DNA of 63,255 bases, counting the filler. It is 5 parts of 5 records of this genome, joined end to end, with 100 filler letters (N's around TTAATTAATTAA, not from the genome) between each part and the next. Parts side by side here need not be neighbours in the genome. Positions count along the whole stretch, not along the records: positions 1 to 13,581 come from SRR20825019_2484; 4 more parts are not named here. One strand, given 5' to 3'. Position numbers and translations under genes: made by a program. The stretch's first letter is position 1. The number at the start of each line of letters is the position of its first letter. This document shows, in pieces, positions 614 through 57,127 of this stretch. A model generated the notes under the pieces. It was not told the origin of the DNA. It was given only the letters and a program-made list of their open reading frames with translations, and did not search any database.

Positions 614-684
614 GATTATTCTATGATACCATAGGTAATCGGTCATTTAACTAAGGCTTGTTTTTTTATAACCATTTGGTTGTC
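614..684. promoter_or_regulatory. Inverted repeats upstream of the recombinase, candidate res subsites
   Basis: GATTATTCTATG-ATAC-CATAGGTAATC (614-640) and AACCA-TT-TGGTT (671-682) directly upstream of the serine recombinase ATG. Confidence 0.35.
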
Positions 685-692
685 GTAATAAA

Positions 693-1601
693 ATGGCGAA
701 AATTGGGTATGCAAGGGTTTCTACTCAGGAACAGTCAATAGAAGGTCAGATTGATATGTTGGTTGAAGCCGGTTGCACTAAAATTTTTCAAGAGAAGGTT
801 TCAGGTATCCGGTGGGATCGCCCAGAGCTGGACAAAGCACTTGCGGCTCTTAAGTCAGGTGATGAATTTGTCGTGTACAAGTTAGATCGGCTAGGTCGTT
901 CGGTCCTGGATTTGCTTAATTTAATTTTCAAGTTGACGGATGAGGGGAAGCACTTCGTGAGTCTCTCAGATGCAATTGATACCTCAAGCCCGCAGGGAAA
1001 GTTTACACTTCATATGCTTGGAGCTGTGGCAGAGTTCGAGAGATCGCTTATTGTACAGAGGACTCGGGTTGGTCTGGCTAAGGCTAGAAAAGCCGGTCGG
1101 ATAGGTGGAAACCCCAAACTAAAGGCTCGAGATCCGGAATCGTTGAGGTTGCTGAGTGAAAGACTAAAGATCAATTATTTTGAGAAGATCAATAAGTCGG
1201 CTCGTATTTGGCTCCCTATTGTTAGAAAGCATAGGCCATCTAAAAAATGGTCTATCGTGACCAAGATGGTCAATGTTGAACAAAAAAAACAAAATGAAGA
1301 ACTTTGGACAGAGAAACGGCTGAAGCGGGCAGTTAAGCATTTCATTAAAGAGGGAATGCTGGATGCGGCAGTTCTTGAAAGAGCCCCGAGAGAGGAGGGC
1401 GAAGGTCCGTCAGGCGCTACACTGCTTGTTGCTGGCTTGGTATCTGCAAAGCCTAATATAACGCTGTTGGAGCTAAAGAAGCATCTCGATGCGTCGTCGA
1501 TGTCACCCAAGAGAAGTCGGGACGGGTGGGCTCTCTCATCGGTCCGTCAAGAGGTGATGAAGGCACTTGATGCGGGGCTTCTCGTGAGGTGGAAAGCTTA
1601 A
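693..1601 (+). CDS. Serine recombinase (resolvase/invertase family) with long C-terminal extension
   Basis: GYARVST (catalytic Ser), VYKLDRLGRS, AEFERSLIVQRTRVGL; the C-terminal extension resembles alphaproteobacterial plasmid recombinases. Confidence 0.93.
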   Translation: MAKIGYARVSTQEQSIEGQIDMLVEAGCTKIFQEKVSGIRWDRPELDKALAALKSGDEFVVYKLDRLGRSVLDLLNLIFKLTDEGKHFVSLSDAIDTSSPQGKFTLHMLGAVAEFERSLIVQRTRVGLAKARKAGRIGGNPKLKARDPESLRLLSERLKINYFEKINKSARIWLPIVRKHRPSKKWSIVTKMVNVEQKKQNEELWTEKRLKRAVKHFIKEGMLDAAVLERAPREEGEGPSGATLLVAGLVSAKPNITLLELKKHLDASSMSPKRSRDGWALSSVRQEVMKALDAGLLVRWKA

Positions 1602-1886
1602 GGCTTTCGCCGCGTGGGGTATCAGAAGATGCGAACTTGTTAGTTAAATCAGTTAGTTAGGCTTTGTTGTGGTCGTGCAATATGACAATGCTCTGCTCCA
1701 GTGCTCAAAATGAGGGCAATTCTCTCGGAGAGGAAAATGCCAAACGTTTACAACCGATCAACTAAGCCTGCTTTTCCAGCATCGGCACACACCTCAGTTC
1801 AGGTAAGACTGAATTTGTGATTAATTAAATTAATAAAAAATACGCATTTTTTTGTTGATCCGGATTCCGGAACTTTAGTACAAGCT

Positions 1887-1947
1887 TTCTTGTGAGCTGC
1901 GGGAGCGTTTCCCTCACTTCGGTGAGAAAACCCTGCGGTCAAAGGAA
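1887..1947 (+). ncRNA. Putative structured RNA upstream of the Abi-like gene (candidate antitoxin or leader)
   Basis: Long hairpin capped by CTCAC-TTCG-GTGAG (cUUCGg tetraloop, 1913-1926); lower stem GCTGCGGG(1896-1903)/CCTGCGGT(1932-1939) needs G-U pairs, which favours the + strand; AT-rich promoter-like region with TTGATC at 1855. Confidence 0.55.
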
Positions 1948-1948
1948 T

Positions 1949-1988
1949 AGGAGCGGGTGGCCCTTGTGGTTGCGCCGCTCTTCTTTTT
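1949..1988 (+). terminator. Intrinsic terminator/attenuator between the structured RNA and the Abi gene
   Basis: GAGCGG(1951-1956)/CCGCTC(1975-1980) stem with an upper GTGGCC/GGTTGC stem, followed by TTCTTTTT. Confidence 0.75.
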
Positions 1989-2068
1989 GGGTATCCTTTA
2001 CTACATTAGCTTGCATTAAAGTTGAACTTCTGCTGACTTGTTATCGGAATTGCAACAAGGTCAGCCCC

Positions 2069-2815
2069 GTGAATTTCGAACGCCGCAGCTCAAGATACGA
2101 CATCGACAGAACCGGACAGCCTTTTCAGATTTCGGACAAACCCGACATGGTCGCATTTCTGTCCGAACCGAGATTCCGTGTATATTGTGTCGAAGCGAAG
2201 GGTGATCCCGACCTTGCATTTCGCCTGTATAGATGGAATATCGTGCTGAGCGAGAGTCTGCTAATGCCGTTTCATTTTGTTGAAGTTGGGGTCAGAAATG
2301 CCATGTCCCAACTGCTTTATGATCGCACTGGCGCCAACTGGCCAATGCTGGCACAAGACAAAAAACACTGGCCAAAAGGCCTCAATGGTAATCCGGTTCC
2401 AGCGCTGCATCACAAAGTTCAAGCTGAAATTGAGAAAACGCGCGAAAAACTCGCCAAGCGTAAACGCAGTCTGGAACGTGTCACGCCTGACTGTGTCATT
2501 TCGCAGCTGACATTCGGCTTTTGGGTCAAACTGCTCTCGAGTGATTTTAAGAAATCACTTTGGACCGGGGGAGTGCGAAAACCCGTCTTTCGTCACGCTC
2601 CAGATCATGTGGATCGTGAAGAAGCCTATGCTGCACTTGATGAGCTACGCATCATGCGCAACCGCTTGGCACACCATGAGATCATCTTTACCAAAGGACC
2701 AACCAAAGTATATGAGCGGATCGAAGAGGTTTGCGGTTGGCTTAATCCTGACATCGCACATTTAATCCGGACAACATCTGATTTCCGGAAAGTCCATGGC
2801 GGGCGCCCCACTTAA
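2069..2815 (+). CDS. Abi-like (AbiD/AbiF, Abi_2-type) HEPN RNase
   Basis: LSEPRF..Y....LY.WN..LS....EVGVRNA N-terminal motif, QLTFGFW, and HEPN RxxxxH motif RNRLAHHE. Start moved to GTG 2069 (AAGG at 2057-2060) because the ORF-track start at 1892 runs through the RNA and terminator. Confidence 0.85.
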   Translation: MNFERRSSRYDIDRTGQPFQISDKPDMVAFLSEPRFRVYCVEAKGDPDLAFRLYRWNIVLSESLLMPFHFVEVGVRNAMSQLLYDRTGANWPMLAQDKKHWPKGLNGNPVPALHHKVQAEIEKTREKLAKRKRSLERVTPDCVISQLTFGFWVKLLSSDFKKSLWTGGVRKPVFRHAPDHVDREEAYAALDELRIMRNRLAHHEIIFTKGPTKVYERIEEVCGWLNPDIAHLIRTTSDFRKVHGGRPT

Positions 2816-4014
2816 CACGCCAATTCGTCCTTCGCGAGCAGGTGAGGCAAATGCTCTTTGACCAACCTATGCGTCAACTGTTCCCCGCGCTTTGATAGCT
2901 TTTCAATCCAGACATCCGGCATGGCCGAAAAGTCTGTTGGATATCCGAACACATCTTCACGCGAGACAAAACCCTCCTCATCACATAACCCAGCTTGGTC
3001 CTTCATCCCAAGGTAAGGCATCGCGAACGCCTTAAGCTGACCTGCGGCACGTAGATCAAACAGACGCTTGGTTGCAAAATTCTGGGCTCGGTCGTGGATG
3101 GTTGTGAACGCACTGGCCATTCTTGCCAACATGAACTGGTTTGGAGAATCAAACCTAAGCCCGTAACCCGCGCGACAGCAAATAATGGTATCAATTTTCT
3201 GAGCATTGAGGCTGACACTTGGGTCTCGATCTGGCCACAGAGGCGCCAAGCCCAAGTTATCGTAGACACCACCATCCGTTAGCGTGACACGTTCTTCGCG
3301 ACGCGTACCGTCCCGTTTCTCAAATGCCAATGTTTCATCGAGCGCAGGCAACAAAAGTGGATAGGCAGCTGACGCAGCCACACCGTGCGACACTTTGAGA
3401 TTGTCATCACAAACGCGCCCCAAACGCCAAGAACCACTGTCTCTGTTTGAAAAGTAGAACGCCGAACCCGTCCTCAAGTCTGCAGCATTGGCGATAAAAA
3501 GCGGTCCATCTTTCGGCAAGTCACGAAATTTCCTGCCGCCAAAAACGTCATCGTCAAGTACGCGTCGAAGGATCGTGGTACGACTTGCATAACGTCTCAG
3601 AGGTGCGCGAACAGCGCCAAGCGCCTGAAGCCTAAGTCCGGGCAAAACCCAGGAAATCCCTCGCACGACCACGGCAAACATCATTAGAAAGATATTCACG
3701 CCCAGCAAAAGGAGCGAGCAGATGAATGCGTTTAATCCCTCTAGGCTTGTGAAGGCCTTCTTCACACTTGGCCCCACCAGACCGGCTCTCAGAAAGTCAC
3801 GCGTCTTCTTTTCAAATTGCTCGAATGACCCTTGATGAGTCGCATACAGAGCGCCGACGACACTGCCACCAGAAACTGTCGATATGACACCTACCTTCTC
3901 AAGCACACCAAGATCATGCAATGCACGTAGACATCCGAGGTGAAAAGCAATCGCGCGAGATCCTCCTCCAGACAATGCCAATCCGATCGTCTCGGGCGCT
4001 TCCTTTCTCGACAT
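2812..4014 (-). CDS. Patatin-like phospholipase with an internal transmembrane segment
   Basis: ALSGGGSRA oxyanion loop, STVSGGS nucleophile Ser, DGGVYDNLG catalytic Asp; hydrophobic insert LNAFICSLLLLGVNIFLMMFAVVV; AGGAG RBS. Confidence 0.92.
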   Translation of the reverse strand: MSRKEAPETIGLALSGGGSRAIAFHLGCLRALHDLGVLEKVGVISTVSGGSVVGALYATHQGSFEQFEKKTRDFLRAGLVGPSVKKAFTSLEGLNAFICSLLLLGVNIFLMMFAVVVRGISWVLPGLRLQALGAVRAPLRRYASRTTILRRVLDDDVFGGRKFRDLPKDGPLFIANAADLRTGSAFYFSNRDSGSWRLGRVCDDNLKVSHGVAASAAYPLLLPALDETLAFEKRDGTRREERVTLTDGGVYDNLGLAPLWPDRDPSVSLNAQKIDTIICCRAGYGLRFDSPNQFMLARMASAFTTIHDRAQNFATKRLFDLRAAGQLKAFAMPYLGMKDQAGLCDEEGFVSREDVFGYPTDFSAMPDVWIEKLSKRGEQLTHRLVKEHLPHLLAKDELAC

Positions 4015-4031
4015 AATGGTCTACAGCTCCT

Positions 4032-6302
4032 TCAGCAGGAAAATTGCTCAAGTCTGGAGGCTTCTTCTCCGACGAAGATAACGCGAATATTCTCTTCACC
4101 GACGATCAGCATCAAACAAGGAAGTCGGTCCATATCAAACAAACTGGCCAACCAATCCAGTTGCTCCATATCAAGTGCGCTGGGCGCAGTTCCCACCCCG
4201 TCAGGATGTGAGTGCCACTCGCCGACATATCTGATCTGCTTGCCTGACCGTTCGCGAACAGCATTTAGTTCAGCCTCGACACCATGCCGCCCCCGGGTGA
4301 ATCGACTTGGAGAACTCTGGCTATCCGAGGGTGCTGCAGAGGCGCCGACAATATGAATTGACTGGTGCAAGATATCGACGAGACCGGTCATATAGCCGCC
4401 AGTTTCGTTTGGCAGGTGCGCGGCACGTTGCTTCAACAAGTGGCTCTTCAGACCTTCGTCAACAGAAATGGTCCAACCGGATTGCGTCCGGAACTGCTCA
4501 ATTGGTGTAACATCAGGGATATCCACGCGCACACCACCACCTTCAGACATCGACCAAATCTTGATCACCGATACAGACTCATCAAGAGCGTGGTCCAGGC
4601 CATGCGAAATCAGGCCACTCAATGCCATAACGTTGCTTTCGGGAATCCTGCTGGTGATCGCCCGACACGCGCCAGTATATGTGTATTTTCCTGTCGGCGG
4701 CGCCATGTGATTTTTCAGTGCCCCGTCGCTTGCTACGATAGCGAGATATCTTGCTTCCAGATCACGCAAACGGATCGACCGATCACTTGGCTCAATCAGC
4801 AAGACGCCAGCAGTTCCGGCTGGGTTGAAAAACACACTGGCTCTTCTGGCTTTGCTTCGGTGATCAGATAAAAATCTGGCCGCACTCACAGACGCCGTTG
4901 CATCAATAACGATGTCTGCGAAATCCAAACACTCATCAATTTGCGTCCTCAGAGCAGGATCTTTGGTTTCGATATCCGCAACAATCGCCTTTGAGGTACA
5001 GCCTTGCAAAACACCAAACACTCTTTGCGCCGCAATATTGGCTTTGTGTTTACCAACATCGTCCCTGAGAGCGGTATGGCGCGCAAGGTTATGTGGCAAC
5101 AGAAGATCGTCATCTATAATCGAGAATTCGTATCCGCCTTGACGTGCGAGAACGTCAAGCACATGAGATCCGATGGCACCCGCGCCGACCACAACCACTT
5201 TGCGCAGTTCGCGCTCAGCTTTTCCTGACATTGTTGTCGCCAGTTCATGATCAAGCTCGAACTGTAACTCGCATGGTGCAAGGTCGACTGTTTCAAGAGC
5301 AGCTCTATTGCTTTCCTGCCGCCCAACGTTTTTCGTATAACCTACTTTGCTTCCATGCGCCTTATCTGCTGCGTAGGCTAAACCGAGATAAACAGCGATA
5401 TCCCCCGCTCGATGAGAGCCAATAAATGCCCGACGGTCGACGATCACCTCGTTCGTCGGTGATTGGATCGGAGTTTCTAATATAACAACAAATCGGCTAT
5501 TCAGTCTTTTAGCTGCTTCAGCACCACTAGCGAGCCAACTTGAGAGTTTGGCCGCAAGCGCTGTGCCCAAATCTCCGCCGGCCCGCGAAACCGTCTCAAT
5601 CAATTGGGTCAGGTTTCGTGGTGCATGGGTCATCCGCCGCATCGGCTGTTCAGGTAATCGATAGCTTACGATGCTCAATGAATTGCCATGAGAGGGCTCT
5701 GACGGAATTTCGCGCTCTTGGATCAGCCGAAAAACCGGCAAATCTGCATTGAGCGAAATTCCTACCAATTCTGTCTCTGAAACAGTCTCAAGCAACTTCC
5801 GATCAGTTATTAACGTTGCGACATTGCCGAACATGTTTGGATCAATCGGCTGCATGATGTCATGCAGCTCATTGTGCGCAGCACGCTTAAACCAGCTTAG
5901 AATCCGGCTCAGAAGTTCCGCCGGCGTCCAGGTTAGACGCGCGTCGGCCCAATGCCGATCATCAACACAAATCGCCCGAGGCAAACCTTCCGGTGTCACC
6001 AAGAGATGAGGCGTTTCAGGAAAATCGTCGCGCAGGACCCAAACAATCGGATGAGCATCTTCTTGACGAAATAAGATGGCCAATCGTTCAACGAGCCTGA
6101 ATGGGTAATGGCTTTTTTGTGGGCGGCCGGTTTCAAGGTCTATAACCACATATGTGCCATCATCATTCTGCCGCAGTTCAATCACTTGCGCAGCCTGCTC
6201 GGCATGCTTTGTGACATAGCGGATGAAAGCGCGTGCTGGATGGTTTTGAACGTCAGCTTCAGAAATCTTGGCGGCTTGGTCGAGCCAAGCGTCGAACTCC
6301 AT
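4032..6302 (-). CDS. Fused prokaryotic E2 - E1 (ThiF) - JAB protein (Cap2-Cap3-like)
   Basis: E2: FPETPHL...RAICV; E1: VVVGAGAIGS, DDDLLLPHNLARH, candidate catalytic Cys in YTGACRAIT; JAB: NETGG...YVGEWHSHP...PSALD. ATG 6302 overlaps the upstream TGA (TGATG). Confidence 0.92.
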   Translation of the reverse strand: MEFDAWLDQAAKISEADVQNHPARAFIRYVTKHAEQAAQVIELRQNDDGTYVVIDLETGRPQKSHYPFRLVERLAILFRQEDAHPIVWVLRDDFPETPHLLVTPEGLPRAICVDDRHWADARLTWTPAELLSRILSWFKRAAHNELHDIMQPIDPNMFGNVATLITDRKLLETVSETELVGISLNADLPVFRLIQEREIPSEPSHGNSLSIVSYRLPEQPMRRMTHAPRNLTQLIETVSRAGGDLGTALAAKLSSWLASGAEAAKRLNSRFVVILETPIQSPTNEVIVDRRAFIGSHRAGDIAVYLGLAYAADKAHGSKVGYTKNVGRQESNRAALETVDLAPCELQFELDHELATTMSGKAERELRKVVVVGAGAIGSHVLDVLARQGGYEFSIIDDDLLLPHNLARHTALRDDVGKHKANIAAQRVFGVLQGCTSKAIVADIETKDPALRTQIDECLDFADIVIDATASVSAARFLSDHRSKARRASVFFNPAGTAGVLLIEPSDRSIRLRDLEARYLAIVASDGALKNHMAPPTGKYTYTGACRAITSRIPESNVMALSGLISHGLDHALDESVSVIKIWSMSEGGGVRVDIPDVTPIEQFRTQSGWTISVDEGLKSHLLKQRAAHLPNETGGYMTGLVDILHQSIHIVGASAAPSDSQSSPSRFTRGRHGVEAELNAVRERSGKQIRYVGEWHSHPDGVGTAPSALDMEQLDWLASLFDMDRLPCLMLIVGEENIRVIFVGEEASRLEQFSC

Positions 6303-7432
6303 CAACCTGCCCTCGGTGTTGAGCCCCCAGCGCCAGACGAAAGCAATGACGCTGCGACGGTCATAGAAAGCCCGCGTTCTGAAATCGTCAGACTGAAAGG
6401 TTTGGGATTTGCCGATGATGGTTGCTCCATCGTGACAATAAATCTGCCATCCTTTTCGGCGCTCACAGCTCTGTGGTAGTTCGCGGCTTGCCGGTGCGGC
6501 GGCTGCACATCCGCATCTTCTTTACTACCACTCAGCGGAATCGGCTTTGAGGGCGAAACAATAAAGCTACCGTCTTCACGCTGCGTTTCATACAGCCACT
6601 TAGTCTCGTGAACCGGTTCAGTCTTGTCTTTCCCGATATCAGGACCGATCGACAGATAGGAGCAGTGATGCGGCAGCTTCAGCAGGTCCCAACGCAAGCG
6701 ATCATCATTCTTACGAGCACGTGTGATGTTGACGATATCTGACAAAGTGTTGTGCTTAACATCAGAGGCAATCAGGAACCGGCTTTCCTGACCATCAATT
6801 TTGAAAGTGGCATGCAGAACAACGGAGTCTTCGTTGCGTTCGATGACAGTGTTCTCGTCTTGACGCCACCCGAATGGGCTATGAACAAAAAATTCCACAC
6901 CTTCTGGGCCGTCACTGCTAAAGTCCGGCACCAACTTGCCGGCATCAACAATCAGGTGTTTTCGCTCTTCATAGTTGATGCCTTCGCGCTTCATCCAAGA
7001 CTTAAGGCGTTCGGGCAGAGAGAAAACGCGAACACCTGAGCCCTGACGCAATCGGTGTCGCGCTTCTTGCCGCACCAGCCGCGAGTCATCAGAAACACCT
7101 TCTTCAAGAATGGCTGCCGCGGGTACCCAGAGCTCGTCAATCTTAACCCGATCGCCGCCCTGATATTTCGCAGCTTGCTCGAGCCAGAAGAAATCCCCGA
7201 ACCCTTTGCAATGGTCCGAATCAATATGCGTGATGCACACCACGTCAAAAAAATTGCGCTTGGCGTCTTCGAGGTCTTTGCGCAACAGGGTGGGCAGATC
7301 GCAGCGTTTGTCGCCCGCTTCACCCGTTCGCATATTGGCAAAATCGATCAAAACTTTACGATCATCCGAGAGATCTATGCGGAGGGTGTCGGCGTTGCCG
7401 AGTGGGAAAAAAGTAACTTTCGCGTTTTTCAT
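6302..7432 (-). CDS. Metallo-beta-lactamase-fold hydrolase (ComEC/Rec2-like) ending in a flexible tail with terminal Gly
   Basis: FFPLGNADT, ITHIDSDH (HxDxDH), LKLPHHCS; C-terminus SSGAGGSTPRAG*. Confidence 0.88.
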   Translation of the reverse strand: MKNAKVTFFPLGNADTLRIDLSDDRKVLIDFANMRTGEAGDKRCDLPTLLRKDLEDAKRNFFDVVCITHIDSDHCKGFGDFFWLEQAAKYQGGDRVKIDELWVPAAAILEEGVSDDSRLVRQEARHRLRQGSGVRVFSLPERLKSWMKREGINYEERKHLIVDAGKLVPDFSSDGPEGVEFFVHSPFGWRQDENTVIERNEDSVVLHATFKIDGQESRFLIASDVKHNTLSDIVNITRARKNDDRLRWDLLKLPHHCSYLSIGPDIGKDKTEPVHETKWLYETQREDGSFIVSPSKPIPLSGSKEDADVQPPHRQAANYHRAVSAEKDGRFIVTMEQPSSANPKPFSLTISERGLSMTVAASLLSSGAGGSTPRAG

Positions 7433-7433
7433 G

Positions 7434-7541
7434 GTTCCTCGCTTCAGCGGCTTATCCGCTGGACAGTGTGTTGTCCGTATGTGCGAAGCAGGAACGATCC
7501 ACCTGAAGACATATCCCGGTTATCCGGTAGAGAAATTCAGG
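7434..7541 (-). promoter_or_regulatory. Structured 5' leader of the MBL operon: three-way junction covering the RBS plus an upstream hairpin
   Basis: Minus strand GTTCCT-GCTTC...GAAGC-G-AGGAAC closes hairpins GGACA/TGTCC and AGCGG/CCGCT; second domain CCTGAA...CCGG-ATAA-CCGG...TTCAGG. Confidence 0.55.
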
Positions 7542-7615
7542 AAAAGGCTACATTAAGCTATCCAATTCGCAGGTCACGGCACGGGTCATTCGATCGCGAG
7601 CCTGGGAGTTTTTGA

Positions 7616-7686
7616 TTGACCCTGACTCATTAATCAGTAAAGTAAGTATATGGATAAATAAACTTTGTCAATAAATAAACTATACT
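7616..7686. promoter_or_regulatory. Overlapping promoters for the divergent genes, with candidate WYL-regulator operator
   Basis: Perfect TTGACA on minus (7666-7671) flanked by direct repeats ATAAATAAACT (7654-7664, 7671-7681); inverted AGTATA(7645)/TATACT(7681); plus-strand TTGACC(7616)-16nt-TAAAGT. Confidence 0.55.
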
Positions 7687-7701
7687 CATATGGAGAATCT
7701 C

Positions 7702-8577
7702 ATGTCTGACATATCGAGCCGCCGCCCATGGGGCGTACAGCGTCGCCTGGAATTCATTGAGTTTCGACTATATTGGGAAGGACAAATTAACCGCGGCGAC
7801 ATCTCCGACACCTTTGGTGTATCAACACCACAGGCATCAACAGATCTGAGTGCTTATAGAGAGGTCGCACCAGAAAACTTGGTTTATGACTCTAGCCTCA
7901 AGGTTTACCGAGCGAGTGACCAGTTTGAACCGCAGTTAATAAAACCGGATGCCAATCAATACTTGTCTCAGTTGCGAACATTCAGTCGGGACAAAACATC
8001 CGATACTTGGCTAGGTGATATTCCAGACTTGGATGCGATGCCGATTCCGTTCCGCAAAGTTGAACCATCGATCCTGCGCACGGCCCTCACAGCAATTAAA
8101 GCCAAAAGATCATTAGAGATTTTTTATCATTCCATGAATGATGAATATCCGGAGCCGATGTGGCGCGCAATCAGCCCCCACGCTCTGGCATCAGATGGTC
8201 TTCGTTGGCACATCCGCGCACTTTGTCACCGTTCCCGCACATTCAAAGACTTCATTCTCTCGCGATGTAGAGATTGCAAACTGGCCGATGATGCGCTTGC
8301 TAAAGCCGACGACGATTGGCAATGGCGAGAGTTTTTGGAAGTCAAACTCATCCCCAATCCGAAGCTGTCAGCAGAGCAACAGAAAACCATCGCTATGGAT
8401 TATGAAATGCATGATGGCAAACGGGTAATGAGCATCCGAAAGGCACTATTCTACTACTTCAAAAAGCGGTTGCGCCTGGACATTGCAGAACAGGTTGATC
8501 ACCCCAAAGAAACACCAGTGATCGTCGAGAATTACGAGACATTGTTAAAAGAAGCGAAGTACCGTCAGGACGGTTAA
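7702..8577 (+). CDS. WYL-domain transcriptional regulator, CapW-like (wHTH-WYL-WCX)
   Basis: RRLEFIEFRLYWEGQINRGDISDTFGVSTPQASTDLSAY wHTH; RAISPHALASDGLRWHIRALC...FKDFILSR WYL; IAMDYEM WCX. GGAG precedes ATG 7702 (ORF track starts at 7690). Confidence 0.92.
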   Translation: MSDISSRRPWGVQRRLEFIEFRLYWEGQINRGDISDTFGVSTPQASTDLSAYREVAPENLVYDSSLKVYRASDQFEPQLIKPDANQYLSQLRTFSRDKTSDTWLGDIPDLDAMPIPFRKVEPSILRTALTAIKAKRSLEIFYHSMNDEYPEPMWRAISPHALASDGLRWHIRALCHRSRTFKDFILSRCRDCKLADDALAKADDDWQWREFLEVKLIPNPKLSAEQQKTIAMDYEMHDGKRVMSIRKALFYYFKKRLRLDIAEQVDHPKETPVIVENYETLLKEAKYRQDG

Positions 8578-8592
8578 CTTCGATACAGGACG

Positions 8593-9519
8593 TTGAACAC
8601 CATGAAGTCTGAAAAACGCCCAAGCTGGCAGCAGATCCGACAAAAATTTCCCAACAAGCTTTATCAACGCGTCTTTCCTATTTCCCCGATACTGGTAGCT
8701 CTGGAATGGTTTGCCGGACAGTATTTTTTTGTGACTGCACGGTGTTATTCATGCCGACTGTCATTTCAGGTTACTGCCGCAACACTTGCCTTGCTCGGTG
8801 CGTGGGGCATCTATCAAGAATATCAGTCTTCGCAAGAGGAACGCATTGGTCGCATGTGGCAGATTGCGACAAGCCCTGTGCCTGGAAACAGCGGCAAGAT
8901 TCCCGCGCTCGAATTTCTTCACCAACGCGGAGAACCCTTGGCTGGAATCGGTATCCCCAGATCTTGGTTAAAGGGCGTCAAGCTGGAAGGGGCGAATCTT
9001 GTGAACTCTAATTTGGCAGGTGCGAATCTTACCGAAGCCATTCTGCCCAAATCCAACTTCTACTATAGTAATCTCGAAGGAACAGATTTTCATTACGCCG
9101 TGCTGACAGATGCTGACTTTTCGAAAACGACTCTCAGGAGCACGGCTTTTGTTGGCGCTTCTTTAGGCAGAGCCGACTTTGCCGATATTTGGATCGATGG
9201 GATGTTCAATGAGGCCAATCTTACCGATGCTAATTTTAAAGACGCAAAATTTGATCGTGCGTTCTTTGATCTGTCATGTGCGAAGTCGGCAAACTTTACA
9301 AATGCCAACTTTGCGGGCTCTCAATGGATCACATTCAACGGCACGGACCTGTCCGGAGCAAATCTGACAAACAGCAAAGGCCTGTCTCAGCTTCAACTTG
9401 ATCAAGCGGGATGTGCGCACACGCCACCCAATCTGACGGGTACCGGCCTGACATGGTCCAAAGAGAAGATCTGTGATGCTGGAGAGCTGTCGGCATGTGA
9501 CAAGCTGGCCGACAATTAG
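8593..9519 (+). CDS. Pentapeptide-repeat protein with N-terminal hydrophobic segments
   Basis: Repeated A(N/D)(L/F)xx units (GANLVNSNLAGANLTEAIL..., ANLTDANFKDAKF); hydrophobic stretch LSFQVTAATLALLGAWGIY. Confidence 0.85.
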   Translation: MNTMKSEKRPSWQQIRQKFPNKLYQRVFPISPILVALEWFAGQYFFVTARCYSCRLSFQVTAATLALLGAWGIYQEYQSSQEERIGRMWQIATSPVPGNSGKIPALEFLHQRGEPLAGIGIPRSWLKGVKLEGANLVNSNLAGANLTEAILPKSNFYYSNLEGTDFHYAVLTDADFSKTTLRSTAFVGASLGRADFADIWIDGMFNEANLTDANFKDAKFDRAFFDLSCAKSANFTNANFAGSQWITFNGTDLSGANLTNSKGLSQLQLDQAGCAHTPPNLTGTGLTWSKEKICDAGELSACDKLADN

Positions 9520-9565
9520 TCATCTGCATTAGCCAATATGCAAGATTTATCCATAGGACGGCAGC

Positions 9566-10132
9566 ATGTCCCATTTTCTTGATCAACTATGTAAGTTTCT
9601 CATGCCGTTGCAATTTGCTTTCCTCAGAATTTTCACCTTCCTCATCATTGTCTCGACATCCATGCCATTGGCAGCGAAGGCTCAGGAACAAAAATGGGTC
9701 GCAGAAACATTTTCTCTCCTGAGCAACTTGATCGATGAGCAACGCATGATTCCGGTGAGCAATGAAAACGCACTCGACACTGAAATCCCGGGTGGCTTTG
9801 TGAAGCTGATTGTATCCCTTCCAGTGACTGTCCAGAACGTTGAAATTATCCCCCGACACACAAGTGTTATGTGTAGCTATCAGGCTGTTCGGGAGGGAAA
9901 TCGAATTCCCGTCACCTGTTACCGTATGCTTACACATGAGAAGTATGACTTTCGAATTTCTGCTAGGGTCTACGACCGACAGGGCGGCCTTGGCATTCCG
10001 GCCGATCGTCAGAAAAGCAACGGCGCACTTCAAGCCGATCACGCCAAAGAACTGCAGCTGGTGATTGAAAACGTCGAAGCCGTCGGAACAGTCGGCCGCC
10101 TCTGGTCGCGCACGCCGAACCACGAGAATTGA
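9566..10132 (+). CDS. Hypothetical exported protein
   Basis: Hydrophobic N-terminus ending in AKA-QEQ (signal-peptide-like); co-oriented with the previous two genes. Confidence 0.5.
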   Translation: MSHFLDQLCKFLMPLQFAFLRIFTFLIIVSTSMPLAAKAQEQKWVAETFSLLSNLIDEQRMIPVSNENALDTEIPGGFVKLIVSLPVTVQNVEIIPRHTSVMCSYQAVREGNRIPVTCYRMLTHEKYDFRISARVYDRQGGLGIPADRQKSNGALQADHAKELQLVIENVEAVGTVGRLWSRTPNHEN

Positions 10133-10252
10133 GTTACCGTCAGCTCACAATAAAACAAACTCAAGGTTAGTTGTTTTTGGGATGGGAAGAATAGTCCAGC
10201 TCATGTTCTAGTCGTGACAAACTCGTAGGCAGCACGTGCGCTTTTCTATTTC

Positions 10253-11632
10253 TTACTTTGTTTGAACTTGAGTGAGCTTAGATGCTCTACTCTCCAACGC
10301 ATCAAGATCATCTATGATCAACTGAATTTCGGCAATTTCTGCTTCTGAAACAGAATCCCATAGCTTCTGGGGCCGATCAATGAGTGACCATTTCAACGCA
10401 TGAAATCCGTTCCAAGCCAAACCCATCCAGCTCGCATAATTAGCGTTGAGCAGGTTCTGGGTCACATAAACCTTACCCGCATTCACTGCACTTGAAGTGC
10501 CATACCCGAGAGCGAGCATCGTGCGAAAGCGTGGTGACATCTTGCCAGGCATCGTATCCAGCAGCGTTTGCCCGAACATAGCATCATTTTTGGCAACCTG
10601 TTTGCCAACGTAAAGCGCACGCATAAGCGCTTCCATAATTGCCATTGGAACACTGGTGACAACGAACTGGCGAAAATCATAGCCTTTGACATACATCCAT
10701 TCTATCTGTCGGCCAAAATTTGAATCGCCCACCTGAATGCCTTCAAGCATTCGCAACAATCCCATGAAAGGTGCAGGCAGCCCCATTCCGCGGTTGCCAT
10801 TTGCCGACGGAGCATTAACATCCGAAAGCAAATGCCCAAGCATTCGACCGACCATCTGGAAGATATTTCCCTCCATTGGGCCACTTTTTCCGGGGATTGA
10901 TTTGATTTCACCATCCACAACGACCGTACAGGTCCCGCGGATCATATCGAGAACCCCGAAAATAATCCCCAATACAGGATCATGCGCCAGAGATCTCAGT
11001 CGATGATTAGTCGGATTAATAGTCTTGGGTGCGGCCCCGACCAATTGCGAAATTACAGACGCATCTGCTGAACCAATTTTGTAGATTTTGGCTAGTTCTG
11101 CACTCAGTTCTGGAGAAATCGCAGCATTGAAAGCGTTTTGAACCCACCGATTGAATATTCCGTCCACAGGGGTCTCAAAGGCAGTTGTCGGCTTTAATGG
11201 TGCTTTAACACAAAGCAGATCAAGCATCGCCGCGAACAGTCCGCATGAACATGCTATGGCATAGTCCAAAGCATCCAGATCATATTGACGGTTGAATGCC
11301 TCTATCTGACGACTAATCCGCTCTCCAACGGCACAAAGTTGTTCATCTGTCAGCAAGTCGGTGAGTTCAACGGGGCCTGCATATACTGTTTCAGCCTCGG
11401 CAAATATCTCGGAAATACTGGTTTGAATCCGAATATTTGGCTGAACCACAGTTTCGGACATCTCAATTGCCGAGATCTTCTCCCTATGTGCCGCCGTAAA
11501 ATCCGCCCCAAACCCCTCTAGAGCAAGCCGTGCGCTCTCAAGTTTGGCACCTATGGTCTGATGCCTATTTTCCAAGTTCAGCGATCTGTCTTGAAGCAGC
11601 TTTACGGCTTTGGCTTCCTTGTCACTGGCCAT
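10253..11632 (-). CDS. Hypothetical 459-aa membrane-associated protein with coiled-coil termini
   Basis: Long ORF; motifs HRLRSLAHDPVLGIIFG, GHLLSD..., GLPAPF, MYVKGYDFRQF; overlaps the upstream gene by 11 nt. Confidence 0.8.
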   Translation of the reverse strand: MASDKEAKAVKLLQDRSLNLENRHQTIGAKLESARLALEGFGADFTAAHREKISAIEMSETVVQPNIRIQTSISEIFAEAETVYAGPVELTDLLTDEQLCAVGERISRQIEAFNRQYDLDALDYAIACSCGLFAAMLDLLCVKAPLKPTTAFETPVDGIFNRWVQNAFNAAISPELSAELAKIYKIGSADASVISQLVGAAPKTINPTNHRLRSLAHDPVLGIIFGVLDMIRGTCTVVVDGEIKSIPGKSGPMEGNIFQMVGRMLGHLLSDVNAPSANGNRGMGLPAPFMGLLRMLEGIQVGDSNFGRQIEWMYVKGYDFRQFVVTSVPMAIMEALMRALYVGKQVAKNDAMFGQTLLDTMPGKMSPRFRTMLALGYGTSSAVNAGKVYVTQNLLNANYASWMGLAWNGFHALKWSLIDRPQKLWDSVSEAEIAEIQLIIDDLDALESRASKLTQVQTK

Positions 11633-12167
11633 TTGTAACGGCTTTCTCGGGGGTTGCTCCCTTGTCCGCCTTCTGCGTCAAAAGCTCAATAGCCATAGAA
11701 ATTTCTGCAATCTGCTTTTCAAAATACTCTGCATTTCCTAGCAAGGTCTTTTGAATGTCGTACAAACGCGCAATTGCTTCACGCAGGATGGCCAATCGCT
11801 TGGCTGTTCGCCTCTTCTTGGCAATTGCATAACCACCGATGCCAAGCAAGGCGATCGGTGCTGCAAGAACACCGATACCTGCGACCATTCCACCACCAAC
11901 CAAGCCACCGGCTGCGGCAAGACCCGATGTAATGCCTGAAGCCGATAGACCTGCGGTACCTAAAGCTGACAAGGCGAAGAAAGAGCCGGTTCCACCAACG
12001 CTGGCGCCAACAGCTGTTGCGACACCTTCTGTAATACCTGGATAATCTTTCTCCAAAGAGCCGAATATTTCCTTGATCTGTTGACTGGCGTCATCGCCAA
12101 GTGCTGCAACATCAATCTCAACCACTTCAGCAGGGGTTTCAGGAGAAGTATTAACAATTTCATTCAT
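11622..12167 (-). CDS. Glycine-zipper membrane protein with C-terminal coiled coil
   Basis: About 65-aa Gly/Ala-rich hydrophobic core (ALSALGTAGLSASGITSGLAAAGGLVGGGMVAGIGVLAAP) followed by KKRR and heptad helices; ATG 12167 preferred over TTG 12194. Confidence 0.8.
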   Translation of the reverse strand: MNEIVNTSPETPAEVVEIDVAALGDDASQQIKEIFGSLEKDYPGITEGVATAVGASVGGTGSFFALSALGTAGLSASGITSGLAAAGGLVGGGMVAGIGVLAAPIALLGIGGYAIAKKRRTAKRLAILREAIARLYDIQKTLLGNAEYFEKQIAEISMAIELLTQKADKGATPEKAVTNGQ

Positions 12168-12292
12168 GCTCTTTGTCTCGTCTGAGTGATGCAAAAATCT
12201 AATATGCTTGAACGCTCAACGAAAATAAAATGAAAATTGAATTTGTTTCTATACACTCAATTCTTGAGAGAGTTCACGTTGGGGGCCGACTG

Positions 12293-13294: not shown

Positions 13295-13581
13295 ACCACA
13301 TATTTTTCAATGATTTGTACTGCTGGAATACTTGGACCCCTGCGACTGCAGTCGTAATTCGCTATGCGATTAAGTTTTCAACCTCTACGGAGGCTTCAGA
13401 GCATGTGGCGACAACCCATCACCGCACCCGCGCAAAGGCCGAAAAGATGGGAAAGGATGATACCTACCGGTAGTGACGAGAGATTCGTATTTAAGGCTGC
13501 TCGAAGTTTTAAGTTAACAGCGTTGCGTGTTCATTTTGTCCGGAAACAGTCATTAACGGACAAATTCACCCCCGAAACGAT

Positions 13582-15099: not shown

Positions 15100-16110
15100 A
15101 TGACTGGTCTTAAGAGAAGCATTCCCGCAATCGCAGCCCTGGCGCTGCTTGGCTCCATCGCCATGCCGGCGATGGCGCAGGACGGCCCCGGTGCCGGTAA
15201 AACGATCAAGATGGCGCAGGCCACCTGGGACACAGGCTGGTTCCACGCTGAAATCTACAAGCAGATGTTTGAAGAGCTCGGCTACACGGTCGAAGGTCCG
15301 ACCACGCTCGATAATCCGCCTTTCTATCAGGCGGTCGGGTATGGCGATGTCGACCTTTGGGTGAACGGCTGGTTCCCGATTCACGACACCTATCGTCCGG
15401 CTTTCGAGGCCACGGCGGAGATCGTCGGCGCGGTTGCGACCGGCGGCGCGCTTCAGGGCTACCTCATCGACAAGGCGTCGGCTGAGAAGTTCGAGATCAA
15501 GTCGCTTGACGACTTCAAGCGGGACGAGGTGAAGGAAGCCTTTGACCGTGATGGAGATGGCAAGGCGGATCTCGTGGCTTGCCCGCCCGGCTGGGGCTGT
15601 GAGGTGGCGATCGAGGATCACCTGACAAAATACGAGCTCAAGGATCACATCAACGAGATCAAGGCGAGTTACTCTGCCTCCATGGCGGATGCCGTCGCGG
15701 CCTATGAGAGCGGCGAACCCATCCTCTTCTACACCTGGACCCCCAACTGGACGGTCAACGAGCTGAAGATCGGCGAGGATGTTGTCTGGATTCAGGTTCC
15801 GGAAGAGGCCACGGAGGAGAATGCCGCAGCCGGGATCGATGGCTGTGTTGCCGATCCTTGCGTCATGGGCTTTGAGGCCAATGACATCGTGCCGGTTGCC
15901 AATTCCGGGTTCCTCGAGGAAAACCCGGCTGTTGCAACGCTGCTCAAGTCGGCTTCGATCCCGCTCGAGGACATTTTTGCCCAGAACGCGGCGATGAACG
16001 ATGGCGCTGACAAGCCGGAAGACATCAAGAAGCAGGCTTCTGACTGGATTTCCGATAACCGCGATACCGTTGACGGTTGGCTCGATGCGGCCCGCAAGGC
16101 AGACGAATAA
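15100..16110 (+). CDS. proX: Glycine betaine/proline ABC substrate-binding protein
   Basis: Signal peptide; QGYLIDK, DGDGKADLVACPPGWGCE, FYTWTPNW. Confidence 0.93.
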   Translation: MTGLKRSIPAIAALALLGSIAMPAMAQDGPGAGKTIKMAQATWDTGWFHAEIYKQMFEELGYTVEGPTTLDNPPFYQAVGYGDVDLWVNGWFPIHDTYRPAFEATAEIVGAVATGGALQGYLIDKASAEKFEIKSLDDFKRDEVKEAFDRDGDGKADLVACPPGWGCEVAIEDHLTKYELKDHINEIKASYSASMADAVAAYESGEPILFYTWTPNWTVNELKIGEDVVWIQVPEEATEENAAAGIDGCVADPCVMGFEANDIVPVANSGFLEENPAVATLLKSASIPLEDIFAQNAAMNDGADKPEDIKKQASDWISDNRDTVDGWLDAARKADE

Positions 16111-16159
16111 ATCCGATTGCCTTCAGGGCCTCATTGCTTGAGGTTTTCCAGCACATTTG

Positions 16160-16194
16160 GACCGCGTGCCTCGTCTGGCGCGCGGTCATTTTTT
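16160..16194 (+). terminator. Intrinsic terminator after proX
   Basis: GACCGCGTGCC-loop-GGCGCGCGGTC followed by a T-run. Confidence 0.75.
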
Positions 16195-16239
16195 GTTGTG
16201 ATGTTTTGTTGTGATGACGAGCGGTGCCGCCATGGGCGT

Positions 16240-23338: not shown

Positions 23339-24442
23339 ATGCCTTTGGGGGAAGGTGGACGGCGCATGTTGCAGACTTCAGGCGCCCCGGAGAAGGGGCC
23401 CACCGACATTGCCGGCATGATTGCAGGCTCCATGCGCCGCATGGGGGTGACCGGTCTGCCGCGCAATTACGAGATTTTTTACGAGGTCTTTACCGGTTCG
23501 AACCGCGATCTTGTGCGCGATTTCGAAGCGTTGAACGGCCGCCCGACCCAGGAAGCCCTGGACAAGCTGGCTCTCAAATACTTCACGCAGAACAACCGGC
23601 AAGCCATCGTCGAGGATGCGCAGGAGCAGATCGCCACGCGAGCGCAGGAAATTCTGTCGCTGCTTGGCCGCGAGCGCAGTTCGCTGGAAAAGTTCGGTGT
23701 GATCCTTGATCAGACCTCCAACGGGCTCAACGGCCGCAGCGCCATTACCCACGATCTCATGCGCAAGATCGTGGGCATCATGGCTGCTGCCACGGAGACG
23801 ACGATCGCCCAGGGGCGTCAGATCACGCAGGCCATGGAAGAAAAATCCAGCGAGCTTGAAGAAATGCGCACGCAGCTCCAGAGGTACAAACGCCTTGCCG
23901 ATACCGATCCCTTGACGAGGATCTGGAACCGCCGGGCCTTTGACAAGCGCATGGCCGGCATCTTCGACGAACAGCGCTCTGTCATGTTCAACGCGCTGAT
24001 CCTTGCAGATATCGACGGTTTCAAGGCGATCAACGATCAATACGGTCATCCCGTTGGCGACAAGATCCTGCAGGGCGTCGCCCAGATTCTCAAGACCCAG
24101 TGCGTAGACGACTGTTTTGTCGCGAGAACGGGTGGAGAGGAGTTCGCCATCATCGTGGAAGGTCTCACTGAGGAGGCGACCGTGAAACTTGCGGAAACGA
24201 TGCGCCTCGCCGTCGAAAAGGCCGAATTCGTTGTAGGATCCGGCGCTCGCAAGTGCGGGCCCATTCGTATATCGCTTGGCGTATGCATGGCAACCGATGC
24301 TGCCAATGCCGATGAACTCTACGCCAAGACGGACCAGGCGCTTTATGCGTCCAAGGTGGACGGGCGCAACCGCGTTACCCTGTTCTCCAGCATTCCCAGG
24401 GGCAAGTTCATGAAGAACTGGCTGCTCTACAGAAACGATTGA
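23339..24442 (+). CDS. Diguanylate cyclase (GGDEF)
   Basis: TDPLTRIWNRR, DIDGFKAINDQYGHPVGD, ARTGGEEF; no canonical RxxD inhibitory site. Confidence 0.93.
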   Translation: MPLGEGGRRMLQTSGAPEKGPTDIAGMIAGSMRRMGVTGLPRNYEIFYEVFTGSNRDLVRDFEALNGRPTQEALDKLALKYFTQNNRQAIVEDAQEQIATRAQEILSLLGRERSSLEKFGVILDQTSNGLNGRSAITHDLMRKIVGIMAAATETTIAQGRQITQAMEEKSSELEEMRTQLQRYKRLADTDPLTRIWNRRAFDKRMAGIFDEQRSVMFNALILADIDGFKAINDQYGHPVGDKILQGVAQILKTQCVDDCFVARTGGEEFAIIVEGLTEEATVKLAETMRLAVEKAEFVVGSGARKCGPIRISLGVCMATDAANADELYAKTDQALYASKVDGRNRVTLFSSIPRGKFMKNWLLYRND

Positions 24443-24596
24443 TGCACACGTCCGCGACGGGATGCATTTTTCTAAACTTCGCATATAGTTTGACGAAAAC
24501 CGCGCCGAATTTCGCCCGATTTGTGATACACGGGGGCTTAAGGGGCGATTTGCGCGCGATTCCAGTCGCAGATATTGAAAAGTGAGGATACGGACT

Positions 24597-25256
24597 ATGT
24601 TGAAGAAATCCATCGCGGTTGCGCTCGTGGCAGGCTTTTCTGCCGGCTGCGTGACCAGCACGGATCCCTACACCGGTCAGCAGAAGATCTCCAACACGGC
24701 CGGCGGGGCTGCGCTTGGTGCGCTGGCGGGTGCAGGCGTTGGACTTCTGGCCGGTGGCGATGATCGTCGCAACGCGCTGATCGGCGCAGGCATCGGCGCA
24801 CTGGCCGGTGGCGCGGTCGGCTCCTACATGGACCAGCAGGAAGCGCAGTTGCGTGGCCAGTTGCAGGGTACCGGCGTGAGTGTCACCCGCCAGGGCGACT
24901 ACATCATCCTCAACATGCCTTCCAACATCACCTTCGCAACCGACTCAGCCAACATTCAGCCGGCCTTCTATTCCACGCTGAATTCCGTCGCTCTGGTTCT
25001 TCAGAAATACAATCGCACGCTGGTGGACGTCTTTGGTCATACCGACTCCACGGGCGATGCAAATTACAATCTGGAGCTCTCACAGCGCCGCGCCGGGGCC
25101 GTTGCCAATTACCTTATTGGTCAGGGCGCGAGCAGCCAGCGTTTTGCGATTATCGGCCAGGGCGAGGCTCAGCCGATCGCCTCCAACGCGACGCCGGAAG
25201 GCCGCGCACAGAACCGCCGCGTGGAGATTCGCCTGTCGCCGCTCACCGGCGCCTGA
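24597..25256 (+). CDS. OmpA-family lipoprotein (YiaD-like)
   Basis: Lipobox FSAGC, glycine zipper, GHTDSTG, GRAQNRRVEI. Confidence 0.93.
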   Translation: MLKKSIAVALVAGFSAGCVTSTDPYTGQQKISNTAGGAALGALAGAGVGLLAGGDDRRNALIGAGIGALAGGAVGSYMDQQEAQLRGQLQGTGVSVTRQGDYIILNMPSNITFATDSANIQPAFYSTLNSVALVLQKYNRTLVDVFGHTDSTGDANYNLELSQRRAGAVANYLIGQGASSQRFAIIGQGEAQPIASNATPEGRAQNRRVEIRLSPLTGA

Positions 25257-25279
25257 TCCCTCACGCTATATGCAAGACA

Positions 25280-25311
25280 GAAAAGCCGCCGGCACCAGCT
25301 GGCGGCTTTTC
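25280..25311. terminator. Bidirectional terminator
   Basis: GAAAAGCCGCC-loop-GGCGGCTTTTC between convergent genes. Confidence 0.85.
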
Positions 25312-25325
25312 CGTTTTGGGAAATG

Positions 25326-26243
25326 CTATCCGGCGGCCATCGCCGTGGCGATGCGCGCCGCGAGCCGCGCATTGTTTTTTACCAACGCAATATTGGTAAC
25401 GAGGCTCGCGCCGCCCGTCAGTTCCAGAATCCGGGCCAGAAGGAATGGCGTCACATCCTTGCCCGATATACCTTTTTCGTTCGCTTCGCGCTGTGCCGTC
25501 AGAATATGTCCGGACATCACATCGGCAGCGATCTCGTCTTCCGCGGCAACCGGATTGGCGATCAGCATGCCGCCGTCGATCCCGAGCGCCGCGCGGGTCG
25601 CCTGAAAACGCGCGATGGCTTCGGCCGTGTCGAGGCGTAGCGGTGCGGGATAGGGGGATTGGCGCGACCAGAAGGCTGGCATTGTGTCGGTACCAAAGGC
25701 GATTACGGGAACGCCCCGGGTTTCCAGCACTTCCAGCGTCTTCTCGGTATCCAGTATCGCCTTCGGCCCTGCAGAGACGACGATAACGGGTGTCCGAGAC
25801 AATTCGTCGAGATCGGCCGAAATGTCGAAGCTCGTCTCAGCTCCCTTGTGAACACCGCCGATGCCGCCCGTGGCGAAAACATGTATGCCAGCCATGTGCG
25901 CGGCGATCATTGTCGCGGCCACGGTCGTGCCGCCGCTTTTCCCCTCGGCAATGGCAAAGGCCAGATCTGCGCGCGACAGCTTCATCGGATCCGTCGCCTG
26001 CGCCAGGGCTTCGCGTTCCTGATCCGACAGACCAATCTTCAGCCGTCCGTCGACCACTGCAATGGTGGCGGGGACGGCGCCTTCCTCGCGGATCAGTGCC
26101 TCCACGTCTCCGGCCATCTCGTTGTTGCGCGGCCAGGGCATGCCATGGGTGATGATGGTGCTCTCCAGTGCCACCACCGGCTTGCCTTCGGCAAGGGCTT
26201 CGGCGACCGGCGCATGGACATCGATAATGTTGTTGGAACGCAC
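25326..26243 (-). CDS. psuG: Pseudouridine-5'-phosphate glycosidase
   Basis: PVVALESTIITHGMP, GGTTVAATM, FATGGIGGVH, GKDVTPFLL. Confidence 0.96.
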   Translation of the reverse strand: MRSNNIIDVHAPVAEALAEGKPVVALESTIITHGMPWPRNNEMAGDVEALIREEGAVPATIAVVDGRLKIGLSDQEREALAQATDPMKLSRADLAFAIAEGKSGGTTVAATMIAAHMAGIHVFATGGIGGVHKGAETSFDISADLDELSRTPVIVVSAGPKAILDTEKTLEVLETRGVPVIAFGTDTMPAFWSRQSPYPAPLRLDTAEAIARFQATRAALGIDGGMLIANPVAAEDEIAADVMSGHILTAQREANEKGISGKDVTPFLLARILELTGGASLVTNIALVKNNARLAARIATAMAAG

Positions 26244-57049: not shown

Positions 57050-57127
57050 TGGGGCGACCAACGGGACTCGAACCCGCGACCCCCTGAATCACAATCAGGT
57101 GCTCTAACCAACTGAGCTATGGCCGCC
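57050..57127 (-). tRNA. tRNA-His(GTG) with encoded G-1 and CCA
   Basis: (G)GCGGCCA-TAGCTCAGTTGGTTAGAGC-A-CCTGATT-GTG-ATTCAGG-GGGTC-GCGGGTTCGAGTCCCGT-TGGTCGC-C-CCA. Confidence 0.97.

Follow-up and report, generated by a model that had tools for sequence, protein, structure and literature searches.

A structured leader overlies the ribosome-binding site of a 6A-MBL anti-phage operon in Thalassospira

Leaders that sequester the Shine-Dalgarno (SD) sequence, such as those of the ermC and cat type, repress or attenuate translation in cis. In RNA thermometers (ROSE, fourU), a hairpin covers the SD, while leaders bound by CsrA or RsmA contain several GGA motifs, one of which is at the SD. A different form of control acts on DNA: according to passages of a study of the CapW repressor, CapW represses operons of CBASS, an anti-phage system whose signaling is based on cyclic oligonucleotides, through imperfect palindromes of ~20 bp (19-24 bp) that lie over the -10 element (PMC9122588). 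Here we describe a leader that shares some features with each of these systems. It lies in a 63,255-nt stretch of DNA (the window), which consists of five joined parts, with the studied locus in positions 1 to 13,581 (SRR20825019_2484). The leader contains a hairpin and a three-way RNA junction directly upstream of the first gene, which encodes an MBL-fold protein, of a 6A-MBL anti-phage operon. The explanation that we favor, and to which we give about an even chance, is that a Thalassospira-specific structured insertion in the 5′ untranslated region (UTR) occludes the ribosome-binding site (RBS) and damps translation of the operon, with a CapW-family repressor as the conserved gate.

The original prediction, made from the letters of the window, described a series of pairing arms and repeated CGGATAA(G)CCG hairpins just before the MBL start codon. 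Every arm is present on the minus strand as written, and RNAfold returned the described structure as both the minimum free energy (MFE) structure and the centroid of 121 nt of the sense strand. Its components are as follows.

7434..7495, minus strand: three-way junction, 62 nt (sequence and RNAfold)
7495..7485 with 7445..7441 and 7439..7434, minus strand: closing stem of 11 bp, with G7440 bulged (sequence and RNAfold)
7440..7436, minus strand: GAGGA SD, inside the 3′ strand of the closing stem (sequence)
7432..7430, minus strand: ATG of the MBL gene, one base past the end of the closing stem (sequence)
7476..7472 with 7465..7461, minus strand: junction hairpin 1, a perfect 5 bp with loop 7471..7466 (sequence)
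7460..7456 with 7450..7446, minus strand: junction hairpin 2, a perfect 5 bp with loop 7455..7451 (sequence)
7502..7541, minus strand: upstream hairpin, 40 nt, with a 6-bp outer helix (7541..7536 with 7507..7502) (sequence and RNAfold)
7527..7516, minus strand: interior of the upstream hairpin (CCGG-ATAA-CCGG), where an 8+8 nt internal loop leads to an inner CCGG/CCGG helix and an ATAA loop (sequence)

The 121-nt fold has an energy of -41.5 kcal/mol (z-score -4.27), and none of 200 shuffled sequences folded as well, which bears out the comparison with shuffles that had been proposed. Folded alone, the 62-nt junction reached -26.6 kcal/mol (z -5.71, 0/200 shuffles as good), and the upstream hairpin was borderline at -13.2 kcal/mol (z -2.35, 5/200 shuffles as good). 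Both persist in the MFE fold of a 290-nt stretch that spans the whole intergenic region and is, as a whole, unremarkable (z -1.58, 14/200 shuffles). The structure buries the GAGGA SD, as predicted: its pairing probability is 0.90, and the best conformer in which the SD and AUG are free lies 6.8 kcal/mol above the MFE. We conclude that the described fold is real and that it overlies the RBS of a known anti-phage operon.

The operon and the regulator that is transcribed away from it comprise four genes.

6302..7432, minus strand: MBL-fold protein of the 6A-MBL system, 376 aa, encoded by the operon's first gene (NCBIfam NF058524.1, 408.4 bits; cut-off 220)
4032..6305, minus strand: E2-E1(ThiF)-JAB fusion "cap2_3", 757 aa (NF058523.1, 622.6 bits; cut-off 320; Pfam Prok-E2_A, ThiF, and Prok-JAB)
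2812..4014, minus strand: patatin-like phospholipase, 400 aa, the likely effector (Pfam PF01734, 7.4e-20)
7690..8577, plus strand: divergent CapW/BrxR-family winged helix-turn-helix (wHTH)-WYL repressor, 295 aa (PDB matches and Pfam WYL)

Since both equivalog models score above cut-off and the two genes are adjacent, the operon is the named anti-phage system 6A-MBL. It corresponds to type 6a among the operons described by Iyer et al., 2006 (PMC1779556). In passages that name the system, its anti-phage activity is attributed by a 2026 review to work in Pseudomonas aeruginosa (PMC13276650), and it is listed among jumbo-phage defences in a preprint (10.1101/2025.09.30.679545). A full-text search on "6A-MBL" revealed no mention of the RNA element in the passages of PMC13276650 and 10.1101/2025.09.30.679545 in which the system is named. 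In comparisons with PDB, the divergent regulator matched CapW (9c5g_A, E 1.3e-59; 7tb6_A also matched) and BrxR (7t8k_A, E 6.3e-46); no sequence match between the MBL protein and a solved structure was found.

We determined how widely the element occurs among relatives. A scan of one genome per species yielded 319 relatives, and the best 80 of the 319 loci were kept for all locus comparisons. With 4532 proteins at E ≤ 0.001 among 7846 candidates, the family of the MBL protein is a large one; the best hit is 93% identical and belongs to a 90%-identity protein cluster of 10 sequences, and all others are at most 68% identical. The E2-E1-JAB gene follows the MBL gene in 79/80 loci, the exception being cut by a contig end, and a divergent CapW-like gene lies directly upstream in eight (L001, L002, L003, L005, L023, L024, L038, and L063). 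When the leader was compared with the 80 loci by blastn, it aligned with one of them, L001 from Thalassospira alkalitolerans, at 89% identity over 301 nt. Distant blastn searches with the leader gave no match in plasmids and, in phages, just 24-25-nt chance matches (E 0.2-0.7). The best identity of the MBL protein in a tblastn search of plasmids was 64%, and therefore no closer leaders are to be expected there. Megablast with the 6-kb locus found no match in E. coli genomes or plasmids. Neither the 63-kb window nor the 80 loci hold a second copy of the element of the kind expected of a repeat or mobile element, and no further copy of either GGATAA hairpin motif occurs in the window.

The structure matches no riboswitch or ribozyme family in Rfam, in line with the original prediction: at the gathering threshold, a search of the whole window with Rfam left the element unmatched. 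In Rfam 15 at E ≤ 10, the lone match in 7300..7800 was a chance one to CRISPR-DR11 (14.9 bits against a gathering threshold of 45) that lies outside the element.

Comparison of the window with L001 over 116 aligned columns revealed 10 substitutions, 8 of them unpaired and 2 in stems. L001 keeps 31/31 pairs, with 62/62 pair cells standard. Both stem substitutions change a Watson-Crick pair to G-U on the sense strand, so that pairing is preserved on that strand only. The junction differs at 4 of 62 nt, none of which breaks a pair, and the upstream hairpin is kept with one A-U pair changed to G-U. Paired columns have changed less than unpaired ones (2/62 vs 8/54, Fisher P 0.043). In L001, the SD is paired with a probability of 0.96, and the sense strand (-48.5 kcal/mol, z -3.97) folds better by 7.1 kcal/mol than the antisense strand (-41.4 kcal/mol, z -2.48). 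This asymmetry mildly favors an RNA of mRNA sense.

The leader has also been constrained. At 4-fold degenerate sites, the window and L001 differ at 55/168 positions in the MBL gene, 99/310 in the E2-E1-JAB gene, 63/188 in the patatin gene, and 42/86 in the CapW-like gene. The corresponding numbers for noncoding DNA are 30/257 for the intergenic region, 10/113 for the structured part, and 4/62 for the junction. Against the 217/666 differences at 4-fold sites of the three operon genes, the binomial P values are 5.8e-15, 2.4e-9, and 8.5e-7, respectively. The leader has therefore diverged about 3-4 times less than synonymous sites, and 3-5 times less than 4-fold sites of the genes on both sides, in a 7-kb syntenic stretch that offers no long intergenic control region for the rate test. 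Changes at third codon positions reappear within 10 codons of the MBL start.

To place the element with respect to the promoter, we compared the CapW-linked loci and mapped the following features.

7616..7689, both strands: divergent promoter/operator module, common to CapW-linked 6A-MBL loci (motif comparison)
7671..7666, minus strand: TTGACA of the promoter module
7620..7616, minus strand: GTCAA mirror (TTGAC on the plus strand) of the promoter module
7681..7671 and 7664..7654, minus strand: a pair of 11-nt direct repeats, one on either side of TTGACA in the promoter module
7433..7615, minus strand: lineage-specific extra leader, which holds both structures and the invariant block and is absent from loci other than L001
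7543..7584, minus strand: 42-nt block, invariant between the window and L001 (alignment columns 117-158), mostly unstructured, which holds most of the 13-codon open reading frame (ORF)
7630..7586, minus strand: tiny ORF 1, 14 codons, open in L001
7589..7548, minus strand: tiny ORF 2, 13 codons, open in L001

All nine CapW-linked sequences (the window and the eight loci) share one layout: TTGAC, a spacer of about 15 nt, a TATAGT-like hexamer, and then GTCAA, with 43-54 nt from TTGAC to GTCAA. The TTGAC/GTCAA arrangement looks like two overlapping divergent promoters with abutting -10 regions. On the plus strand, the candidate promoter for the regulator is TTGACC-16-TAAAGT (7616..7643, scan score 9/12); the minus-strand TTGACA/TATACT with its 15-nt spacer was read by eye, as it falls below the spacer rule of the scan and was not called. 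In L001, an identical A-to-C substitution is found in both copies of the direct repeat, at alignment columns 25 and 42. Such a concerted change would fit an operator that co-evolves with the CapW-like protein; the two CapW-like proteins, from the window and from L001, share 71% identity.

Between this module and the start codon, the loci differ greatly. From GTCAA to ATG, the window and L001 both have 188 nt, L002 and L003, with leaders about 165 nt shorter, have 22 nt, and the five other CapW-linked loci have 33, 67, 87, 121, and 268 nt. L002 and L003, with leaders as short as about 40 nt, carry a strong AAGGAGG directly after GTCAA, and the 3′ strand of the closing stem resembles this native ribosome-binding region. 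The resemblance suggests that the extra sequence brought a new anti-SD strand to an old SD. L005 has about 250 extra nt at the same position, which seemingly include a small ORF behind GGAGG. The leader looks like an insertion hot spot. The promoter scan found no promoter-like site inside 7433..7615, and the TTGAC module common to these loci is situated some 205 nt upstream, the position of the transcript being judged from promoter-like matches. If transcription starts ~35 nt past TTGAC, a leader of ~205 nt would contain the whole element.

Given the substitution rate of the leader itself, 42 invariant sites would arise by chance with a probability of 0.005; given the rate of 4-fold sites, this probability is 6e-8. 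RNAalifold pairs the CGUG of the invariant block with the CAUG of the start codon, on energy alone. Adjoining the block, 7586..7609 (minus strand) is the most diverged patch of the leader: 11 of its 24 nt differ, and indels are absent.

The leader has the defining feature of SD-sequestering leaders, a stable helix that includes the SD beside the start codon. As in leaders of the ermC/cat type, an anti-SD strand pairs with the SD just before the first start codon of the operon, and two tiny ORFs lie upstream. Unlike in those leaders, there is no usable alternative pairing, and the tiny ORFs have neither an SD nor coding-type conservation. The two overlap stop to start (ATGA), and the AUG of tiny ORF 1 would fall just a few bases from the predicted transcription start. 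Because tiny ORF 2 has zero synonymous changes between the window and L001, constraint appears to act on its nucleotides and not on a peptide. When we masked the arm of the upstream hairpin, as in the footprint of a ribosome at the stop codon of tiny ORF 2, the SD was still paired at 0.74. The lack of an SD and the persistence of the junction under this mask led us to reject leader-peptide attenuation. An alternative pairing of the 3′ arm of the hairpin with the 3′ strand of the closing stem was 7.8 kcal/mol worse than the MFE when forced. We thus found no alternative conformer, and the "translational switch" of the original prediction is not supported.

Other described classes fit less well. 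The SD lies in a hairpin as in RNA thermometers, but the junction is probably too stable to melt at growth temperatures, because of its -26.6 kcal/mol and its 11-bp GC-rich closing stem. A riboswitch-like aptamer was rejected since the fold does not recur upstream of homologues in diverse lineages (81 sources), and an intrinsic terminator or attenuator since a scan for a GC-rich stem followed by a U run found 0 terminator-like sites in 7380..7760. On present evidence, the element is not a new RNA class, as SD-sequestering leaders are already known as a kind.

In the explanation that we favor, ~165-185 nt of extra sequence would occupy the 6A-MBL 5′ leader of the Thalassospira lineage, downstream of the shared CapW-type promoter. 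In the mRNA, this sequence would fold into the hairpin and the three-way junction, and the closing stem would pair the SD up to the base before the ATG. Plain occlusion of the RBS in cis would keep translation of the first gene low. E2-E1-JAB would probably be held low too, because the 4-nt overlap between the start of its ORF and the MBL stop allows translational coupling. The outcome would be less basal expression of an abortive-infection system that is probably toxic (patatin), and control that responds to infection would be expected from the CapW repressor at the promoter. We infer both that the transcript starts upstream of the element and that translation is lowered, as well as the extent of this effect, which we would put at some tenfold or more on the basis of the 6.8 kcal/mol and thermodynamic models of initiation. 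The element does lie upstream of a real 6A-MBL operon, but the earlier claim that the structure "gates the defence operon" is not supported: the gate that is shared with relatives is the divergent CapW-family repressor with its promoter module.

Several results weigh against a role in translation. Because every helix is Watson-Crick in the window, its antisense strand forms an equally good fold (-42.6 kcal/mol, z -3.77), and the window sequence alone is unable to separate a role at the level of RNA from one at the level of DNA. Folds of this stability are also not rare. When both strands were scanned with 62-nt segments in 6-nt steps, 504 of the 21,066 segments reached an MFE of -26.6 kcal/mol or lower. 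When the 140 segments ranked best by a composition regression were re-scored for z, 9 strand-specific clusters had z ≤ -5, some of them the two strands of a single palindrome, and 36 had z ≤ -4; the junction, with exact framing, scored -5.36. In a minus-strand grid of 1053 segments of 120 nt, 34 had a noisy z ≤ -3, of which one beat the leader's -4.16 after re-scoring; for the two grid segments over the leader, z was just -1.8 and -0.6. Opening positions -18 to +12 costs 19.1 kcal/mol, which ranks 7th among 51 ORF starts taken from crude longest-ORF calls (median 10.2). By a rough estimate, given ~50 genes and a few dozen folds of this kind in the 63 kb, about one fold would be expected to overlie some RBS by chance. 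Since comparable folds are frequent in the window, stability and position are insufficient to establish function.

The comparison with relatives adds to these points. Among the window and the 80 loci, the element is carried by two closely related Thalassospira sequences only, and a covariance model of the 116-nt element matched just these two in 81 sources (1,004,270 bases), the next match being at 11 bits (E 7.7). The 121-nt leaders of the 80 homologous starts have z ≤ -2 in 7 cases, with the bulk near 0, and an SD pairing probability of at least 0.85 in 4. As the fold is absent from the other 79 loci and their leaders are near z 0, it is not a feature of the 6A-MBL family; z-scores, opening energies, and GGAT counts together rule out a general structured leader across the family. 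The structural conservation on which the original prediction depended is therefore found in L001, pair for pair, and absent from every other homologue. Nor did a check for covariation help: 0/31 pairs are altered on both sides in the sole alignable orthologue. In a permutation test that keeps the from-base and to-base of each substitution, the P values for no broken pair (0.156) and for two or fewer stem changes (0.093) were not significant. The substitution pattern is thus compatible with selection for the fold but short of demonstrating it. Lastly, the 42-nt block is the best-conserved part of the intergenic region, which puts the conservation peak outside the fold. Because the whole intergenic region is constrained and its peak is unstructured, the constraint could serve something besides the fold.

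Many of these points would be explained if the leader were a neutral by-product, the remnant of an insertion or rearrangement at a variable position, with hairpins that have no regulatory role and conservation that stems from a short evolutionary distance or from other signals. The spread of GTCAA-to-ATG lengths from 22 to 268 nt, the lack of covariation, the non-significant substitution pattern, the similar z-scores elsewhere in the window, and the 79/80 related loci without the element all agree with this idea. We nevertheless consider it unlikely, since the leader has diverged 3-5 times less than the flanking 4-fold sites on both sides, third-position changes resume so soon within the MBL gene, and both stem substitutions keep pairing on the sense strand only. 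It is also conceivable, though we would call it quite improbable, that the two CGGATAA(G)CCG inverted repeats, and perhaps a third, act as DNA palindromes that bind a dimeric protein as a roadblock or second operator. All helices in the window are perfectly Watson-Crick and both strands fold alike, the CGGAT arms of both hairpins are invariant in L001 while the loops change, and GGATAA occurs 2 times against 0.07 expected (P 0.0025, motif chosen post hoc). In addition, CapW-family proteins bind palindromes, as passages of PMC9122588 describe, and the locus resembles CapW/BrxR-controlled defence promoters in having a divergent wHTH-WYL gene beside an E1-E2/JAB defence operon, with a conserved promoter module between them. 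However, the CapW sites in those passages (PMC9122588) are 19-24 bp long and overlap the -10 element, whereas those of this leader measure 12-16 bp and are located ~100-200 nt downstream of the module, in the predicted transcribed leader; in size and position, they do not fit CapW/BrxR operators. Unlike the CapW promoter module, the element is absent from the seven other CapW-linked loci. Moreover, the two long helices of L001 gain G-U pairs, which are mismatches in DNA or in antisense RNA.

A conditional gate, in which the junction would open or lock in response to a trans-acting factor (a GGAU-recognising RNA-binding protein, small RNA, phage product, or small ligand) and translation of the operon would thereby follow a signal, seems to us very doubtful. 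As in CsrA/RsmA leaders, five GGAU motifs and the GAGGA SD lie within about 135 nt, all of them kept in L001, and the loops and the 42-nt block are conserved beyond the needs of pairing. Unlike in CsrA/RsmA leaders, the GGA motifs are largely in stems and not in loops, and the enrichment of GGAT in the 208-nt leader (5 observed vs 1.2 expected, P 0.0015) was noticed post hoc. GGAT is not enriched in the 79 other 6A-MBL leaders (mean 0.90 vs a background of 0.93), the loop bases of both GGATAA hairpins change in L001, and the lack of an Rfam match, the lack of an alternative structure, and the confinement of the element to one lineage also argue against such a gate. Were it to exist, the GGAU hairpins and the 42-nt block could form a second, post-transcriptional checkpoint over CapW, and the abortive-infection operon would be translated only once a specific, possibly phage-derived cue had opened the junction, an idea that we hold with equally little confidence. 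Some MBL-fold enzymes act on nucleic acids, and it had been proposed that the MBL protein has this RNA as its partner or substrate, which would make the RNA an integral component of the defence. We give this proposal almost no credence: adjacency to the MBL gene speaks for it, but the MBL/E2-E1-JAB pair is present in 79/80 loci and the RNA element in 1/80, so that the other 79 loci do without it, and leaders of ~40 nt serve in L002 and L003. The downstream operon is a member of the 6A-MBL system, whereas the element is outside the conserved make-up of that system. As a whole, the original interpretation is partly supported.

The neighborhood of the operon resembles a defence island, with three further genes nearby.

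693..1601: serine resolvase
1892..2815: Abi_2/PD-T4-5-like gene, convergent with the patatin gene
8593..9519: pentapeptide-repeat gene that follows the CapW-like gene

All 26 aligned MBL proteins (26/26) end in an invariant Ala-Gly (6302..6307, minus strand, in the window). In type II CBASS, Cap2-type E1-E2 enzymes conjugate a C-terminal glycine. By analogy, the MBL protein may itself be a conjugated substrate. Elsewhere in the window, 23726..23805 (both strands) forms a very stable hairpin of ~23 bp within a long ORF on the minus strand (23378..24661), with a fold of -78.5 kcal/mol (z -6.47) over 151 nt. The 62-nt scan also picked out strong structures or palindromes at 25238..25346, 16076..16221, and 1219..1292 (z -5 to -7.7). 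The sole Rfam match at the gathering level in the window is a tRNA at 57053..57126 (minus strand, 68.8 bits).

If the fold damps translation as we favor, the Thalassospira locus would have a second, lineage-specific layer of control, in which RNA structure is added over a CapW repressor to quiet a toxic ubiquitin-like/patatin operon. In heterologous expression, the native leader would probably suppress the Thalassospira system. More generally, the leader that separates the CapW promoter from the first gene would be a site at which such control evolves.

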